From NCBI GenBank assembly GCA_031425655.1, contig JANPJS010000125.1:1-35910 (forward strand): a stretch of DNA of 35,910 nt, in the 5' to 3' direction. Shown in pieces: positions 1,146 through 32,559 of the stretch (positions are counted from its first letter, which is position 1; each line of letters opens with the position of its first letter). The DNA comes from Abditibacteriaceae bacterium (GTDB taxonomy: Bacteria; Armatimonadota; Abditibacteriia; Abditibacteriales; Abditibacteriaceae). The position numbers were made by a program, and so were the translations under genes. The notes beneath the pieces were generated by a model. That model worked only from the letters and a program-made list of their open reading frames with translations. It had not been told where the DNA came from and searched no databases.

Positions 1146-1294
1146 GATTTCCTTTTTACGAGCAAGCAAAGATGCCCGAAAGTTTAGCAGCCGCGCTTTG
1201 AACGATGTTCTTAAACGGTGTTGCCCATGCAAAAAAAGCGAATTCAGAATCCCATCCTCGCCCCTTCGAGAAGACGCGATGGTCTAAAGTCGGC

Positions 1295-2845
1295 ATGAAA
1301 TTCCACGCCTGCTTCGCACTGCTATTAACCGCCCTGCCCGTTGCCGCCGACAACTGGCCACAAGCCGCCGGGCCAAACGGCACTTGGCAAACCGAGGGCA
1401 CGCCGCCAACTGCGTGGAGCGTGACGCGCAACCAGAATATCGTCTGGAAAAGCGCTCTGCCCGAAGAAGGCCAAAGCGGTATCGCCGTGTGGAACGACCG
1501 CGTTTTTCTCACGACCATGAAGCCTCTGGCGCTGGACGCGAAAAGCAAGGAAGGCAGCGACATCGTGGGTTATTGCTTAGACGCCAAAGACGGCAAAATC
1601 CTCTGGACGGCAGATTTGCCCGGCACGGTTAAAGGGCCTTACGCTTACGGTTTCAGCAATTCGTCCACGCCTTCGCCGATCACCGACGGCAAACATGTTT
1701 GGTTTTATAACGCCAGCGGTTCACTCGGCTGCTACGATTATTCCGGCAAACAAATCTGGCTGCGCACATGGCAACCAACAGCTAACGGACGGCCCTTCAA
1801 CAAGCAATTCGAGCCGATAATGATCGGCGAAACCGTGCTTAATATGGAGCCGCGCGACGCCGACGACCCAAAACGCGAAAAAGACGCGTGGAATTATCTG
1901 CGCGCATTGGACAAAACGACGGGCAAAACGCTGTGGATTTCCGACGATGCTTTAACGCACTACAACACGCCGCGCATCGGAGTTTTGGCCGACGGCAGCT
2001 ACGCGATTTTGCAAGGTCGTGGCGGCCATCACGACGTGCCGGAAAAGCCCGAAGGCTTGAGTCTGATGAGCCTGGCACACGGACAAGCCGGAAAAACGCT
2101 GTGGCGCTACGAAACGCCCACGCACGCGCTTTACGTCATGCACTGGGACAAGAAATACGCGTATTGGCTCGGCGAACAAAACGGTGAACATCGCGTGCTG
2201 GACGCCAAAACCGGCGCGCTTTTACGCACGCAGTCGCTGACGGAAAAAGTAGATTTACGCAGCTTCGATTCCGAAACCGGCAAATACAAATTGCAAGCCG
2301 GCATCAATCTAAAAACTCAAACGCCGCCGATTAACGTGATGCCGGCGTGGTTTTCCAACATCGTAGTCGGCGATTGGCACTATTTTCTGTGCTTTACGGA
2401 CAGTGGAGCCAAGCGCGGCCCGGCTTATTGCATTGGGCGCGTAAACGTCGAAAGCGGCAAAGTGGAATATTTGGAAGTTCCTGTTCAAGTCAAGCGCGAA
2501 GCCGGACAGCCCGACAGTTTTATCTGGCACCAATCGCAGCCGGCTTCAACCGTCAATTCGCGCGGCATTGACGTGGCGGGCGACCCTCGTTCGCGGCGCG
2601 ACGGCTGGTATTGGAATTTCAACGGCACTCCGACTGCCGTCGGCGGCAAAATATTCTTTAACACGATGCTCGGCGTCACTTACGTTATTGATGGCCGCGC
2701 CCCGATTTTCGATGAAAAAGCGCTACTTTCGGTCAACGATCTCGGCCCCGGCGGGCAAACATGGAGCCTGAATTCCATCAGCTACGCCAATAATCGGCTG
2801 TATCATCGCAGCATGAAAGAAGTGGTTTGCATCGGTGGCAAGTAG
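1295..2845 (+). CDS. Secreted PQQ-like (BamB-type) beta-propeller repeat protein
   Basis: Signal peptide then ADNWPQAAGP, with repeated LDAKDGKILW / LDKTTGKTLW blades. Confidence 0.85.
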   Translation: MKFHACFALLLTALPVAADNWPQAAGPNGTWQTEGTPPTAWSVTRNQNIVWKSALPEEGQSGIAVWNDRVFLTTMKPLALDAKSKEGSDIVGYCLDAKDGKILWTADLPGTVKGPYAYGFSNSSTPSPITDGKHVWFYNASGSLGCYDYSGKQIWLRTWQPTANGRPFNKQFEPIMIGETVLNMEPRDADDPKREKDAWNYLRALDKTTGKTLWISDDALTHYNTPRIGVLADGSYAILQGRGGHHDVPEKPEGLSLMSLAHGQAGKTLWRYETPTHALYVMHWDKKYAYWLGEQNGEHRVLDAKTGALLRTQSLTEKVDLRSFDSETGKYKLQAGINLKTQTPPINVMPAWFSNIVVGDWHYFLCFTDSGAKRGPAYCIGRVNVESGKVEYLEVPVQVKREAGQPDSFIWHQSQPASTVNSRGIDVAGDPRSRRDGWYWNFNGTPTAVGGKIFFNTMLGVTYVIDGRAPIFDEKALLSVNDLGPGGQTWSLNSISYANNRLYHRSMKEVVCIGGK

Positions 2846-2851
2846 AATCGC

Positions 2852-3403
2852 TTATTCGCTCCAATGCGTTGCTATCGCTTTGCAGAATACGATCATTTCG
2901 TCGTGGCTGAAGCGGTTCTTGGCGCAGTTGGCCATGTAACAAACGAACTGCACGTTACCGCTTACATAACCCTTTTTCGGGTCAATCCGATCTAAACTGG
3001 CGCATTGTGGTCTTAATTTCCAGCGGCCACCAATATATTCGCCGGAGCTTTCGGGGATGAGCATTTTCCATCCTGTATAAGGGCAGATGCCTTGCTGCCG
3101 TCCCCATAATTCCTTGAGCAATTCAAGATTCAAAGAAAACTCAAGCCCAAACTCGACAGAACGCCTGCGAGCCGTGCGTAAAAACACTTTGAAACTTGAA
3201 TAGCCGTCTTTGCGACTGTAGCCCCGCAAATGCTCCCAAATCTTGGTGTCTTCTGGAATATTTTTTAAATTGGCCTTTCCGGCACATGACCTTGAACAAT
3301 AAATCGGTCGTCCCAGCCGATTGCTGCGGAGAACTTCGCTGCGAACTCTCTGATAGGTAGATTCACAAATTGGACACACTAATTCGATCATCGTTTGTGC
3401 CAT
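2852..3403 (-). CDS. Zinc-finger plus His-Me (HNH-like) endonuclease-family protein
   Basis: N-terminal CPIC...YCSRSC and C-terminal CPYTG...SLDRIDPKKGYVSGNVQFVCYMANCAKN. GGAGG SD 8 nt before the ATG at 3403. More AT-rich than its neighbours. Confidence 0.75.
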   Translation of the reverse strand: MAQTMIELVCPICESTYQRVRSEVLRSNRLGRPIYCSRSCAGKANLKNIPEDTKIWEHLRGYSRKDGYSSFKVFLRTARRRSVEFGLEFSLNLELLKELWGRQQGICPYTGWKMLIPESSGEYIGGRWKLRPQCASLDRIDPKKGYVSGNVQFVCYMANCAKNRFSHDEMIVFCKAIATHWSE

Positions 3404-3457
3404 AAAAAATGCCTCCGACTCCATTTTATCAAATGGAATCGGAGGCATTTTTTATGG
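3400..3457 (-). terminator. 27-bp hairpin: tmRNA terminator that also sequesters the nuclease SD and ATG
   Basis: Arms 3400-3426 and 3431-3457 with one G.U pair in the minus-strand RNA. The GC core is followed by U6. Confidence 0.8.
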
Positions 3458-3460
3458 AGT

Positions 3461-3842
3461 TGGAAGCGTTGGGAATTGAACCCAAGTCCGCGAGGTGAAC
3501 GACAACGGCATCTACAGGCTTAGTCGCGTTTTGATTTAGGTGCTCGCTCCCGACACGACAGCGGAATACGCGCACCGAGTTCGCATTTTGCTTCTACCTT
3601 GCGGTTTCGGCGTGCCGGAAAACTAAAAGGGGCGAACTAACCCGTTAATTTTCCATCCGTCTGAGTGATGTTTAACGAAGTCCGACGGACAAAACTCTGT
3701 TAAACATGGCGGCGATTAAGCAGCCAGGGCCAGCGGTTGCTGGTAAGTGTTGGCAATTGTGTTTTTGAGCTGTTTAACGAGTCTGCCCAACTCGGCCTGC
3801 CACCGTTGCATCCAAGTCCCCACGTCGAAACCTGTCGCCCCC
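3461..3842 (-). ncRNA. ssrA: tmRNA
   Basis: 5' GGGGGCGACAGGTTTCGAC. Tag ORF 3754-3716 reads ANTYQQPLALAA*. T-arm TTGGG-TTCAATT-CCCAA, acceptor 3' strand CGCTTCC-A with G3.U. Confidence 0.95.
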
Positions 3843-5724: not shown

Positions 5725-5730
5725 TTTGAT

Positions 5731-5847
5731 TGACGAGTGACGAGTGACGAATTACGAATTACGAATTACGAATTACGAATTACGAATTACGAATTACGAA
5801 TTACGAATTACGAGTAAAATTCGTAACTCGTCACTCGTAATTCGTCA
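5731..5847. repeat. Heptamer tandem repeat with inverted copies
   Basis: 12 forward T(T/G)ACGA(A/G) units, including 8 perfect TTACGAA (5752-5807), then 4 inverted units (5820-5847). Confidence 0.95.
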
Positions 5848-6723
5848 CTAAGCCCAGCCATCTTCGAGCATTTGCCGCAGATATTGGGCGTATTCGGTTT
5901 TGCCAAGCGCGGCGATCTGGCGCTGCACGCCTTCAGCGTCAATGTAGCCCATTTGGTAGGCGATTTCTTCAAGACAGGCGATTTTCAAGCCCTGCCGTTT
6001 TTCGATGGTCTGAATGAAGGTGCCGGCTTCGAGAAGGGAATCGTGCGTGCCGGTATCGAGCCATGCCGCGCCGCGTCCGAGTTTTTCCACGCTGAGTTGG
6101 CCCATTTCTAAATACGCGCGGTTTACGTCGGTGATTTCCAGTTCGCCGCGCGCCGACGGCTTGACCGCAGCTGCAATTTCCGTAATGCGCGCGTCGTAAA
6201 AATAAAGCCCGACGACGGCATAATGCGATTTCGGATGGGAAGGCTTTTCTTCGATGGAAATCGCCCGTCCCGTCCCGTCAAATTCCATGACACCATAACG
6301 TTCCGGGTCTTTGACCCAGTAACCGAAAACGCGGGCGCCGCGTTCAAGGCACGCAGCATTTTGCAACTGGGCGCTGAGGCCTTGTCCGTGGAAAATATTG
6401 TCGCCTAAAACCAAGCACGCCGGGCCGCCGGCCACGAACTCTTTGCCGATATGAAAAGCCTGCGCCAATCCTTCGGGACGCGGCTGTCCGGCGTATTGAA
6501 TATTGATTCCATACTGGCTTCCGTCGCCTAAAAGCCGTTGAAAAAGCGGTAAATCGTGCGGAGTTGAGATCAAAAGAATGTCGCGCAGGCCCGCAAGCAT
6601 TAAAACCGACAGAGGATAATAGATCAGCGGCTTGTCGTAAACCGGCAGCAATTGCTTGGAAACCGCCTGCGTAATCGGATATAATCGGGTGCCGCTGCCG
6701 CCTGCCAACACGATGCCTTTCAT
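5848..6723 (-). CDS. rfbA: Glucose-1-phosphate thymidylyltransferase
   Basis: [35 protein letters not shown] and [10 protein letters not shown] motifs. Confidence 0.96.
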
Positions 6724-7680: not shown

Positions 7681-7704
7681 GCCCGAATTGGGCCTTCGAC
7701 TGAG

Positions 7705-7789
7705 CGGAGGGAGAGGGATTCGAACCCCCGGAAGATTGCTCCTCAACGGTTTTCAAGACCGTCGCATTCGACCGCTCTGCCATCCCTCC
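7705..7789 (-). tRNA. tRNA-Ser(TGA)
   Basis: GGAGGGA acceptor, anticodon arm ACGGT-CTTGAAA-ACCGT, long variable arm, GGTTCGAATCC. CCA not encoded. Confidence 0.95.
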
Positions 7790-10035: not shown

Positions 10036-10046
10036 AACTTTCCATA

Positions 10047-10117
10047 GTTTTGAATTTTAAGTTTTTAGTTTTGAGTTGATGCTGTAACTCAAAACTAAAA
10101 ACTCAAAACTCAAAACT
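10047..10117. repeat. Heptamer repeat hairpin (TTTTGAG/CTCAAAA)
   Basis: Degenerate forward and inverted heptamer units between secD and secF. Confidence 0.8.
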
Positions 10118-16985: not shown

Positions 16986-16991
16986 AAATCG

Positions 16992-17064
16992 TAGCGGGAG
17001 AGGGATTTGAACCCACGACCTACGGCTTATGAAGCCGTTGCTCTAACCCCTGAGCTACCCCGCC
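16992..17064 (-). tRNA. tRNA-Met(CAT), elongator type
   Basis: GGCGGGG acceptor with G2-C71 and C3-G70, anticodon arm ACGGC-TTCATAA-GCCGT, GGTTCAAATCC. Lacks initiator features. Confidence 0.88.
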
Positions 17065-24104: not shown

Positions 24105-25475
24105 ATGCAGAAAACACCTGTTTCTCCTTCGCGCCACGCGCCCGGCCCGCCGGGCCGCTTTTTATTCGGCAGTTTGCTCGACGTGCGCGAAAACCCCATC
24201 GAATTTTACGCGGAGGCCACGCGGCGCTACGGCGATGTCGTGCGCTTTCGCTACGGACGCCGCAAAGCGTGGCATTTGGTCAACAATCCGGCGCATATCG
24301 AATGGATTTTGCAGAAAAACGTCGGCAATTATCCCAAAGGCTTCTTTTTCAACCGGCGCATCAGCCTGCTCTGCGGCAACGGCTTGGTCACCAGCGAAGG
24401 CGATTTCTGGCGCCGTCAAAGGCGTTTGGCGCAACCGGCGTTTCACCGCCAGCGCTTGGCAAATCTCGTCGGCACCATGACAGATGCCACTGATTCCATG
24501 CTTGGCGAATGGGATGATTATGCGCGGCGCGATCACGCTTTCGACGTGACCGAATCCATGATGCGTTTGGCCTTGCAAGTCGTTGGGCGTTCGCTGTTCA
24601 GCACCGAATTGGGCGAGCACAGCGAGCGCGTATATCACGCCATGAGCGGCGTTTTAGCGCACATCGGATTTCGGATGTTCAACCCGTTCTCGGCGGGCGA
24701 AAAGGTGCCGACCAAGCGCAACCGCACTTTTGTGCGCGACCGGCACACGTTGGATGAAGTTTCGCGCCACATCATCGAAGAACGGCGGCGCGAAGGCGGC
24801 GACCGGGGCGATTTACTTTCGATGTTGATGTTGGCGCGCGACGAAGAAACCGGCGAAGGCATGAGCGACGCGCAGTTATTGGACGAAGTCCGCACTTTGC
24901 TTTTTACCGGCCACGAAACGACGGCTGTTGCGCTGTCGTGGACGTTCAAGCTGCTGGCTCAAAATCCTCATGTCCGTGAGCGTTTGCAAAGCGAAGTTGA
25001 CGAAGTTTTGCAAAACCGCACGCCGACGCTGGAGGATTTACCGCGCCTGACGTTCACGCGCCAGATTTTCGAGGAAACGCTGCGCTTATATCCGCCGGTT
25101 TGGTGCATTCCGCGCCATTGCAACCAAGCGGACGAAATCGGCGGCTACGACATCGGTGCCGATTCAACCGTCGTGATTTTGCCATATTTGACGCATCGTC
25201 ACCCCGATTTTTGGGACAACCCGGAAGCCTTCGATCCCGACCGTTTTTCACTTGAACGCTGTGAAAACCGCGCCAAATTCGCGTATTTCCCGTTCGGCGG
25301 CGGGCCGCGCGTGTGCATCGGCGCCAATTTCTCGATGATGGAGGCGCAAATTATTCTGGCGATGGTGACGCAGAAATTCCAACTCGATTTAGTGCCCGAT
25401 CACCCGGTTTCCATGTCGCAATCGCTGACTTTGCGCCCGCGACACGGCTTAAAAATGACTTTAACGCCGCGTTGA
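24105..25475 (+). CDS. Cytochrome P450
   Basis: TGHETT, EETLRLYPP and FPFGGGPRVCIG motifs. Confidence 0.96.
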   Translation: MQKTPVSPSRHAPGPPGRFLFGSLLDVRENPIEFYAEATRRYGDVVRFRYGRRKAWHLVNNPAHIEWILQKNVGNYPKGFFFNRRISLLCGNGLVTSEGDFWRRQRRLAQPAFHRQRLANLVGTMTDATDSMLGEWDDYARRDHAFDVTESMMRLALQVVGRSLFSTELGEHSERVYHAMSGVLAHIGFRMFNPFSAGEKVPTKRNRTFVRDRHTLDEVSRHIIEERRREGGDRGDLLSMLMLARDEETGEGMSDAQLLDEVRTLLFTGHETTAVALSWTFKLLAQNPHVRERLQSEVDEVLQNRTPTLEDLPRLTFTRQIFEETLRLYPPVWCIPRHCNQADEIGGYDIGADSTVVILPYLTHRHPDFWDNPEAFDPDRFSLERCENRAKFAYFPFGGGPRVCIGANFSMMEAQIILAMVTQKFQLDLVPDHPVSMSQSLTLRPRHGLKMTLTPR

Positions 25476-25477
25476 TA

Positions 25478-25562
25478 TTCACCACAAAGACACCAAGACA
25501 CAAAGAAAATCAGTTTAAAGTCCTTTTTAAAATTCTTTGTGTCTTGGTGTCTTTGTGGTGAA
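25478..25562. repeat. 30-bp perfect inverted repeat
   Basis: TTCACCACAAAGACACCAAGACACAAAGAA (25478-25507) and its reverse complement (25533-25562). Confidence 0.9.
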
Positions 25563-25570
25563 AATTTTCC

Positions 25571-26857
25571 ATGACTTCCCACCGCGTTATTCTCGCTACT
25601 TTCGGCACGTTGGGCGATTTGTATCCCTATCTCGCCATCGCGCGCGAACTGAATGCGCGCGGTCATCGCGCCGCAGTTGCAACGGCAGAATTTCATCGCG
25701 CGACAGTCGAAGGCGCTGATGTGGAACTTTTGCCGATTCGTCCCGATTTGCCGCGCGATAATTTCAGCGAAGCCTTCGCGGGCGTGATGGACGCGCGCGG
25801 CGGCACCAAATACTTGTTTCAAAACCTGATTTTGCCCGCGCTGCGCCAAAGCTACGACGATTTAACGCGCGCAACGGCAAACGCCGACCTTTTAGTCACG
25901 CATTCTCTTGCGCCGGGGGCAGTTTTGGTGGCGCAAAAGCAAAATGTGCCCTGGATTTCTGCGGTCGTGTCGCCGATTTTCTTTTATTCGCAAAACGACC
26001 CGCCGCTATTGCCGATTTTGCCGCAGTTGGCCCGTGCGCCGCTTTTTGGCACGTTGTGGACGCGCTTTTTGATGCGCGTCGTGCATCGTCGCTTCGAGCC
26101 GACTTTCGCGCCGCTTTACGAATTCAGGCGCGAACTCGGCCTGCCGCGCGGCGCTTTGCCGCTTTTTGAAGGCCAGCATTCGCCGCACAAAGTTTTAGCG
26201 CTTTTTTCTCGTGTTTTGGCCGAACCGCAGCCCGATTGGCCGCAAAATACCATCGTTACGGGATTTTGCGAATTAGATGACAGGCGTGATTTATCGCCAA
26301 CAGCGCGCGGTTTTCTCGAACGCGGCAACGCGCCTTTAGTGTTCACATTAGGCGCGTCGTCCACGCACGCGCCCGGCGATTTCTGGGCGCAAAGCGTAGC
26401 CTCCGCGCGATTATTAAAGCGCCGCGCGCTGTTATTAACGGGCCGCGACGACGTAACTTTCGCCCCGTCGCCGGATGTTGCCGTTTTCGCCTACGAGCCG
26501 CTGGGGCAAATCCTGCCGCGCGCCGCAGCGCTGGTTCATCACGGCGGCATGGGCACGATTGCCCTCGCTTTGCGCGCCGCCTGTCCGCAGCTCATCATGC
26601 CTTTAGCCAACGACCAACCCGACAACGCCGCGCGCATCGCCCGTCATCGCGTAGCGCGCGTGTTGTCTCCGGCGGCATATCAAGCGCCGCGCGTGGCTCT
26701 CGAAATCAGAAAACTGTTGGAAGATCAACTCATCGCGCAGCGCGGCGCCGAGTTGCAAAAAATTATCGAAGCAGAAAACGGAGCGAAAACGGCGGCGGAG
26801 CAAATCGAGAAGTATTTGAACTCTCGCAAAGGCGCAAAGACGCAAAGAGTTTTTTAG
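25571..26857 (+). CDS. GT1 family glycosyltransferase (GT-B fold)
   Basis: GTLGDLYP, VHHGGMGT and DQPDNA motifs. Confidence 0.9.
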   Translation: MTSHRVILATFGTLGDLYPYLAIARELNARGHRAAVATAEFHRATVEGADVELLPIRPDLPRDNFSEAFAGVMDARGGTKYLFQNLILPALRQSYDDLTRATANADLLVTHSLAPGAVLVAQKQNVPWISAVVSPIFFYSQNDPPLLPILPQLARAPLFGTLWTRFLMRVVHRRFEPTFAPLYEFRRELGLPRGALPLFEGQHSPHKVLALFSRVLAEPQPDWPQNTIVTGFCELDDRRDLSPTARGFLERGNAPLVFTLGASSTHAPGDFWAQSVASARLLKRRALLLTGRDDVTFAPSPDVAVFAYEPLGQILPRAAALVHHGGMGTIALALRAACPQLIMPLANDQPDNAARIARHRVARVLSPAAYQAPRVALEIRKLLEDQLIAQRGAELQKIIEAENGAKTAAEQIEKYLNSRKGAKTQRVF

Positions 26858-26890
26858 TTTTCTCTTTGCGTCTTTGCGTCTTTGCGAGAG
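26821..26890. repeat. 29-bp inverted repeat overlapping two convergent gene ends
   Basis: CTCTCGCAAAG(G/A)CGCAAAGACGCAAAGAG arms with 1 mismatch. Confidence 0.9.
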
Positions 26891-28553: not shown

Positions 28554-28628
28554 AGTTTTGAGTTCTTAATTTTGAGTTTTGTGTTGTGAATCTGTAACTC
28601 AAAACTCAAAATTAAGAACTCAAAACTC
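28554..28628. repeat. Heptamer repeat hairpin (TTTTGAG/CTCAAAA)
   Basis: Overlaps the last codons of thiG. Confidence 0.8.
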
Positions 28629-32447: not shown

Positions 32448-32559
32448 TTTCAATAGAACACGGATTTCACGGAAACGGCCACGGGTTTTCACGGATTTTT
32501 CTTGAAATTGATCTGCGAAAATCCGTGGCCGTTTCCGTGAAATCCGTGTCCTATTGAAA
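32448..32559. repeat. Long inverted repeat (CACGGATTT units)
   Basis: TTTCAATAG.ACACGGATTTCACGGAAACGGCCACGG and its reverse complement. Confidence 0.85.

Follow-up and report, generated by a model that had tools for sequence, protein, structure and literature searches.

What is the role of a long hairpin that lies between a tmRNA gene and a nuclease gene and reaches into the start of the latter? The question is raised by contig JANPJS010000125.1 of an Abditibacteriaceae bacterium (assembly GCA_031425655.1), of which we analyzed a stretch of 35,910 nucleotides, here called the window. A preliminary description had given the hairpin three roles: tmRNA terminator, translational lock on the nuclease, and carrier of a bypass promoter. 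When we reread its sequence statements (27 bp, one G·U pair, Shine-Dalgarno [SD] sequence, U6, AUG, and -10 positions), all were exact. The features concerned are as follows.

2852..3403, minus strand: nuclease gene P0001, intact, 183 amino acids, separated by 6 nt from the convergent gene that ends at 2845
3400..3457, minus strand: 27-bp hairpin, likely tmRNA terminator (symmetrical, A6/T6) and stem that sequesters the SD and AUG
3404..3409, minus strand: U6 tract (T6), read from the sequence
3412..3416, minus strand: SD sequence GGAGG, 8 nt 5' of the ATG
3423..3431, minus strand: putative extended -10, TG-A-TAAAAT, predicted start at about 3417-3416, no -35
3433..3441, minus strand: box 2, CGATTCCAT, TCCA at +27, 21 bp from box 1 and 1 nt before the TG of the -10
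3454..3462, minus strand: box 1, CAACTCCAT, with TCCA at +6 relative to that of the tmRNA, putative half-site of an operator
3461..3485, minus strand: T-arm (TTGGG-TTCAATT-CCCAA) and acceptor 3' strand (CGCTTCC-A), presumed target region
3461..3842, minus strand: tmRNA gene ssrA (ARAGORN; Rfam RF00023, 156.7 bits)

P0001 consists of an N-terminal CxxC...CSRSC zinc finger (residues ~1-50) and a PacI-like His-Me domain (residues ~62-183). A Pfam search of the protein returned no family. PHROGs matches were to endonuclease families (best, phrog_3322, E 3e-23), with weaker matches to phrog_1400, labeled "Srd anti-sigma factor" (E 1e-7), and phrog_4592. The sequence matched PacI at E 8e-4, and PacI residues D92, R93, Y100, N104, and N113 align with the P0001 active-site residues D138, R139, Y146, N150, and N159. 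Across 53 sequences, D138, R139, and N150 do not vary, and conservation of Y146 is 90% or more. With the predicted structure (pLDDT 93.8), Foldseek also found PacI (E 3.9e-4); the structural alignment is middling (Z 7.3, rmsd 6.2, 109 residues aligned) and ranks above the other HNH rows. The CFIC of PacI aligns to CYMA in P0001, where the C-terminal CxxC is incomplete, and the Cys is not conserved across the family. Fold matches of the N-terminal domain were weak (YacG, Z 2.7; FCS finger, Z 2.2). Judged by sequence, the family is a relative of PacI and not its orthologue, and sequence and structural model together make P0001 a PacI-like tyrosine His-Me nuclease of group 20. PacI acts as a homodimer. 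Cyanobacterial members of the family carry a second catalytic domain without a second zinc finger, and such a repeat of the nuclease domain alone would fit a dimeric catalytic core.

We favor ATG 3403, the start given in the preliminary description, over the in-frame ATG at 3391, because the host uses SD signals and GGAGG stands 8 nt before 3403. The 16S 3' end that holds the host anti-SD (GATCACCTCCTTTCT) was found on contig C273, and SD motifs over 1521 starts peak at -14 to -8. ATG 3391 has no SD; homolog lengths are still compatible with it. ATG 3448, from which the frame is open through the hairpin, was considered and set aside because it sits 13 nt past the tmRNA within the 5' arm and has no SD, and because homologs start 5 to 9 residues before the first Cys. 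At its other end, the nuclease gene is met by a PQQ_2 beta-propeller gene (window positions 1205-2845, plus strand) across a 6-nt gap in which no terminator was seen. The beta-propeller transcript may run antisense through the nuclease gene and end at the same symmetrical hairpin.

The tmRNA gene is of the standard one-piece form. It encodes the tag ANTYQQPLALAA and ends in discriminator A3461, with CCA not encoded. Among 24 RNA runs listed for the sequence, none shared half of its words, and assembled RNA contigs from four metatranscriptomes cover the tmRNA only. The base that follows the tmRNA's TCCA is A, which breaks the TCCAY box; it is C in same-genus nuclease-free alleles, and TCCA followed by A is also found in one nuclease-free relative (L022). 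The last 25 bases of the window tmRNA differ from same-genus alleles at 7 or 8 positions, and core divergence is 20 to 23%. Against this core divergence, comparison with the same-genus alleles did not demonstrate co-conversion at the window locus. Elsewhere in the window are genes for tRNA-Ser(TGA) (7704-7789, minus strand) and for a tRNA with a CAT anticodon (16991-17064, minus strand).

The hairpin begins 4 nt past the discriminator. Its arms, 3457-3431 and 3426-3400, are 27 nt each and 96% complementary, with one G·U pair, and enclose the loop GATA (3430-3427); the nuclease ATG at 3403 lies within the 3' arm. The region 3370-3470 folds at -46.1 kcal/mol (z -9.3), which none of 200 shuffles equaled. 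Stem length is unremarkable: the hairpin ranks tenth by length among the inverted repeats listed for the window, and 384 hairpins across the genome have a stem no shorter than 15 bp, and in 40 of these it is no shorter than 27 bp. Long, REP-like intergenic inverted repeats also occur at window positions 5728-5849, 10046-10117, 25475-25565, 26821-26890, 28554-28627, and 32448-32559, and several of these are built of 7-mer units (ACGAATT, AACTCAA).

The 384 hairpins were read on both strands as controls. The scan needs an 8-bp perfect seed and misses the studied hairpin itself, so it supplies a control set only. Over the 768 strand readings, a TG with five of six -10 bases at the loop was never seen, a TG with at least four of six was seen once, and a -10 with five of six alone was seen 14 times. 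An SD followed by an ATG in or just past the 3' arm was seen in one reading. What is unusual is the presence of SD, AUG, and extended -10 together in one hairpin, not the length of the hairpin.

We found that the terminator role proposed in the preliminary description is supported, and the hairpin is likely the tmRNA terminator. It has the anatomy of an intrinsic terminator, with a G+C-containing stem and then a U tract directly after a transcribed gene. In all 15 same-family relatives that we folded, a long hairpin stands directly 3' of the tmRNA in the absence of the nuclease (judged by eye). A consensus scanner for promoters and terminators called neither the hairpin terminator nor the hairpin promoter, which has no -35. 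The 15 relatives also speak for another reading, in which this is an ordinary long bidirectional ssrA terminator behind which the nuclease gene landed; SD, AUG, and -10 would then coincide with it by chance, and the gene would be near-silent. The number of long hairpins in the genome and the RNA contigs, which give nothing for the nuclease gene, point the same way. However, the stem sequence is unrelated to same-genus ssrA terminators and resembles the spacers of distant nuclease homologs, the control readings almost never reproduce the overlap, and the reading frame and its catalytic residues are intact. We consider the ordinary terminator improbable as a full account.

The second proposed role, the translational lock, is also supported. 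Opening the initiation region is calculated to cost 39.5 kcal/mol on the read-through RNA versus 5 to 11 on RNA starting at 3416. Among 400 sampled starts, the median cost was 8.0 and the maximum 25.1, so the read-through RNA exceeds all of them. Pairing of the SD also recurs in homologs. Of 66 clusters with a tmRNA upstream and a usable start (taken from the best 239 loci, described below), 39 have an SD-like motif, which is paired in 29; the choice of start codon favored SD-bearing ATGs. The remaining 27 spacers are without an SD-like motif, and some have a plain promoter and a leaderless start. Therefore, the lock appears to be optional and a dedicated proximal promoter common. The cyanobacterial stem, compared over 25 sequences, covaries: 11 of 12 pairs have two-sided changes, more than in any shuffle or slid control, among sequences that are related. 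Burial of the AUG holds for the window hairpin but is not general, as the two closest loci have the AUG outside the stem.

The third role requires a promoter across the loop. The motif is present and rare in control hairpins. In the family of the Calothrix genome G043, the -10 is kept in the hairpins of 8 of 11 nuclease-bearing versus 10 of 55 nuclease-free genomes. The mirror strand is also enriched there (5/11 versus 8/55), and the carriers cluster by kinship. The nuclease-free terminators of this family have a decayed nACAnT where carriers have TAyAnT. Over all lineages, the strand test was negative: a -10 matching at four of six positions lies in the loop in the sense direction in 34 of 53 and antisense in 30, and at five of six positions in 25 versus 19, which is not significant. 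This again suits an ordinary terminator. In RNA starting at 3416, the SD is still covered by a weak predicted stem (pairing 0.8). Overall, support for the bypass promoter is moderate, and the sequence makes a loop promoter plausible, not established.

Next to the hairpin stands a gene of sporadic occurrence. A full-length nuclease gene is present in 1 of 27 family genomes, and one other genome holds N-terminal fragments. Same-genus relatives share the genes upstream with the window and have different genes downstream. The nuclease ORF is the only one between the tmRNA and the convergent gene. We looked for an integrase-bearing island at ssrA and found no integrase gene in this interval and no tmRNA-end (att) copy or displaced tmRNA end behind the nuclease gene. 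An island was rejected on these grounds, the interval holding only the nuclease ORF and no far-end tmRNA copy.

A locus search of viral contigs with the single sequence found no nuclease homolog. Alignment-based searches confirmed 132 loci in genomes, 567 in viruses, and 554 in metagenomes, and we took the best 79, 80, and 80 of these, respectively, as the family set; the 239 loci form 123 clusters at 70% identity. We found that the nuclease gene adjoins a tmRNA end in 99 of the 123 clusters from these best loci. It lies downstream on the same strand in 80, convergently in 12, in a T-loop group I intron in 4, and in permuted genes in 3. The tmRNA of the 80 same-strand clusters was identified by ARAGORN in 43, by our own 3'-end profile (nhmmer) in 18, and by Rfam or inspection in 13; in the other 6, the tmRNA ahead of the nuclease contains a T-loop intron. 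Of 20 tmRNA loci called by the nhmmer profile alone, 17 were confirmed by Rfam. Intron exons and crAss-like permuted genes were read by eye, and Rfam supports the introns, not the crAss-like genes. Among the 24 clusters without a tmRNA link, 11 have short flanks and 2 later showed a tmRNA. On the sequences compared, these results show that the nuclease gene is a recent lone insert behind ssrA and that, in phages and bacteria alike, its family keeps to the 3' end of tmRNA. The preliminary description had placed a nuclease gene behind the tmRNA, correctly, and missed the specialization of the family on the tmRNA 3' end.

Several loci deserve mention in their own right. The crAss-like contigs L119, L121, L133, L136, L222, and L257 (e.g., NC_055890) hold small two-piece tmRNA-like genes that are unannotated and have no Rfam score, with the nuclease antisense in the intervening segment; inspected by eye, they show pairing between the acceptor strands and a tag-like frame with AA or similar at its end. 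In L075, L087, L097, L179, and L263, a group I intron in the tmRNA T-loop carries the His-Me gene antisense after P9. On phage contigs L142, L143, and L152, GOLLD RNA genes lie less than 2 kb from the tmRNA-nuclease pair. One homolog (L082, 1746-2556) lies between two tRNA-Ser genes, away from any tmRNA and without a box, a possible target switch. In a same-family genome (G013), locus L003 has, within 1916-2396, a different nuclease gene after the tmRNA, frameshifted, whose frame starts MRENDLYWLAGLLEAEGS and which we take to be LAGLIDADG-like by motif; a small helix-turn-helix-like ORF lies at 2235-2396. The ssrA 3' flank may attract several nuclease types.

Traces of mobility are found in the family. 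In the G043 family, the nuclease is present in 18 of 121 genomes, with several copies broken, and there are also remnants. A tmRNA-end copy lies behind the nuclease stop codon in 12 of 64 clusters (null 2.0, maximum 7; about 4 look like chance), and in L111, L204, and L208 this displaced copy starts within the T-loop. Among 53 tmRNA pairs with cores at least 95% identical, 3 show swaps at 10 or 11 of the final 25 bases. The nuclease is involved in all 3 (3 of 10 such pairs, against 0 of the 43 without it), and they represent about two independent events. The T-arm/acceptor ends of L273-L342, in the G043 family, fall into four discrete types with matching 5' strands. By its sequence, the gene has the traits of a free-standing homing endonuclease: an intact active site, a fixed place by the target gene, patchy presence, and decayed copies. 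The tmRNA linkage, relics, swapped ends, and T-loop introns point to a homing endonuclease that would target the T-arm/acceptor region.

The protein could instead be a host-takeover, defense, or tmRNA-regulating factor that does not home and sits next to ssrA for co-regulation. The phrog_1400 and phrog_4592 matches fit this, T4 Srd being a nonhoming relative, as do the missing canonical His, the incomplete C-terminal CxxC, and the many family members in phages. Such a factor is at odds with the patchy presence and many broken copies, with members in group I introns in either orientation, with the swapped tmRNA ends and displaced relics, and with conservation of the PacI-type Tyr active site (as described in the available part of PMC5714182). 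We judge it very improbable and retain the homing endonuclease.

The three roles in the preliminary description held in their anatomy, but copies of the tmRNA end in the 5' arm, a probable operator, had been overlooked. A box, CRYYTCCAY, recurs in the spacers and has the sequence of the tmRNA acceptor 3' strand. The window has two of these boxes and a degenerate TCCG at +21 (3443-3440); tandem pairs like the window's occur five times in the 6-Mb genome. We found the box in 52 of 66 spacers (9.3 in shuffles, maximum 17). Upstream of the nuclease gene it occurs in 53 of 66 clusters, and nuclease-free tmRNAs from the same phylum have it in 1 of 29 cases, a difference that also counts against an ordinary terminator. 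Boxes resemble their own tmRNA end more than those of others (P = 0.0006, n = 53). With the tmRNA's own box counted, boxes are spaced 19 to 23 bp apart in 43 of 66 clusters (null 10.0, maximum 21), with a peak at 20 to 22 bp; a spacing of 19 to 23 bp is about two helical turns.

The register of the boxes varies with the end of the tmRNA. A box at +6 occurs in 5 of 13 loci whose tmRNA has TCCA plus a purine versus 0 of 50 others (63 of the 66 rows were scored), and 4 of these 5 have another box at +25 to +29. In contrast, a box at +19 to +23 occurs in 2 of the 13 and 32 of the 50. The +6 loci are scattered over the protein tree. The window is of this type, with TCCA-A at the tmRNA end, boxes at +6 and +27, and the second box abutting the -10.

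It may be that the element and the RNA lock are real and the TCCAY boxes are scars of tmRNA-end duplication, kept where they pair by chance with the SD, CCUCC being an anti-SD. This would explain why the box resembles the local tmRNA end, and it agrees with the duplicated ends behind the nuclease gene in 12 of 64 clusters, with box-SD pairing in many hairpins, and with the retention of box and hairpin by 43 of the 55 G043-family genomes that are nuclease-free. However, the box is also found in 14 of 20 spacers that lack a pairing partner (2.6 in shuffles). So it is in 9 of the 12 convergent and 7 of the 8 antisense loci, whose upstream side carries no tmRNA end on the same strand. Three convergent loci have box pairs 19 to 20 bp apart without an SD. 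Scars also would not account for a spacing peak at 20 to 22 bp that shifts with the +6 register. We regard scars as rather unlikely, and an operator as the better reading of the boxes. Because those 43 nuclease-free genomes keep it, the box in the G043 family is independent of the nuclease gene; there it may be left from an earlier invasion or belong to a native terminator that the element co-opted.

By sequence and analogy, the boxes suggest an autorepression operator that mimics the homing site, as in I-TevI, and thus a fourth role of the hairpin. As expected of such an operator, the presumed target sequence recurs in a copy that overlaps the putative promoter of the enzyme.

Taken together, these data suggest that the hairpin probably serves as control region for a selfish element of one gene, which would encode a free-standing homing endonuclease specialized on tmRNA 3' ends. 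The steps of this explanation are not equally secure. The strong ssrA transcript would very probably stop at the hairpin, and any read-through RNA would have its SD and AUG buried, as sequence and energy indicate. It is quite probable that the zinc finger anchors on the acceptor-strand CRYYTCCAY, that a dimeric PacI-like core cleaves a nuclease-free allele within or beside its T-arm, and that repair copies the element in with a replacement tmRNA end. On balance, the extended -10 across the loop would give a short translatable mRNA that begins at the SD. Somewhat more confidently, the protein may be expected to bind the two boxes, 21 bp apart in the 5' arm by the -10, and so repress its own promoter. 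The 3'-arm SD is almost the reverse complement of the box, so a single palindrome can serve all four roles.

How the window allele would escape its own enzyme is a matter of speculation. Conceivably, the allele is immune in that the base after TCCA has been changed and the box rebuilt 6 bp away, out of register with the T-loop; we hold this with some doubt. We found no single immune T-arm sequence, as T-stems differ in nearly every nuclease-linked tmRNA and T-arms are equally varied among nuclease-free relatives, and no immunity rule among the 50 loci in which TCCAY is retained where the tmRNA ends. A joint reading, which we offer tentatively and doubt slightly more than we believe, is that the 58-bp palindrome is a four-way switch. 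The boxes copy an acceptor strand that is also an anti-SD, so that target mimicry and lock would be one. The enzyme would measure the distance from box to T-loop, and its own allele would be immunized by the changed postdiscriminator base and the box pair rebuilt 6 bp downstream; because CCA is added posttranscriptionally, the element would be able to change that base. The ssrA terminator of heterocystous cyanobacteria may then be a domesticated fossil of the cassette, and swapped T-arm/acceptor blocks would record repeated invasion of ssrA, an essential gene.

The locus offers a testable regulatory logic by which a homing nuclease could sit directly behind an RNA gene that ranks with the most strongly transcribed in bacteria, with the host unharmed, and it allows the recognition sequence of the enzyme to be predicted from DNA alone. 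The family offers a cause for the T-loop position of all known tmRNA introns and for T-arm/acceptor block swaps between near-identical tmRNA genes. Since there are cultured cyanobacterial carriers, Calothrix parasitica NIES-267 and Scytonema sp. HK-05, the model is testable. In addition, a nuclease that is small, of the tyrosine type, and equipped with a separable zinc-finger anchor could be of use as a rare cutter.

Our literature search, with most subscription papers and supplements (e.g., those of PMC11915505) outside its scope, found no tmRNA-linked His-Me family, no such operator, and no merged terminator, lock, promoter, and operator. For each single part, T4 offers a precedent. According to the accessible part of PMC11915505, known tmRNA introns are all in the T-loop, some have a nuclease gene after P9, and LAGLIDADG genes occur in 36 of 883 tmRNA introns, none over 700 bp; this part makes no mention of His-Me genes or free-standing neighbors. 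The five introns with an antisense His-Me gene described above exceed that 700-bp maximum.

PacI (PDB 3ldy/3m7k; His-Me finger group 20) has no catalytic His and uses an Omega-loop tyrosine instead (PMC5714182, in the part available to us). P0001 is like PacI in its fold, its DR motif, and this replacement of the catalytic histidine. Unlike PacI, it has an extra N-terminal zinc finger and a fixed tmRNA link; identity in structural alignments is 16 to 23%, and the C-terminal CxxC of PacI is reduced to one Cys.

The closest precedents for the control are phage genes. As far as the available text of PMC2988022 goes, T-even I-TevI/II/III, T4 segB, and Aeh1 mobE are under translational control by hairpins that sequester the SD, and similar hairpins are described in the part of PMC2677866 at hand. 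As in the T-even homing endonucleases, the SD here lies about 8 nt before the AUG and is buried in a stable hairpin on long transcripts, and an mRNA from a proximal promoter, here a predicted one, would be without the blocking arm (PMC2988022, same portion). Unlike the T-even cases, the present system lies on a bacterial chromosome and has tmRNA as its upstream transcript, and its hairpin doubles as a probable terminator. Moreover, the T-even systems use a T4 late promoter, whereas the putative promoter here is a sigma70-type extended -10, so there would be no infection clock.

The same portion of PMC2988022 describes autorepression of I-TevI at an operator resembling its homing site. The present enzyme would share with I-TevI the placement of a target copy over its own putative promoter and the modular join of zinc finger and nuclease. 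It differs in being a His-Me enzyme encoded by a free-standing gene, where I-TevI is GIY-YIG, and in having two putative 9-bp boxes, phased at ~21 bp, that derive from the tmRNA acceptor strand and double as the anti-SD arm. T4 SegB, a free-standing GIY-YIG enzyme of the tRNA cluster, is listed there as cutting a tRNA intergenic region. As with SegB and with collaborative homing (PMC10055350, in the part seen), a free-standing nuclease lies by a small structural RNA gene and is found also beside its intron. Unlike SegB, our enzyme belongs to another nuclease family, its presumed target is tmRNA, and its family has free-standing, intron-borne, and permuted-gene members.
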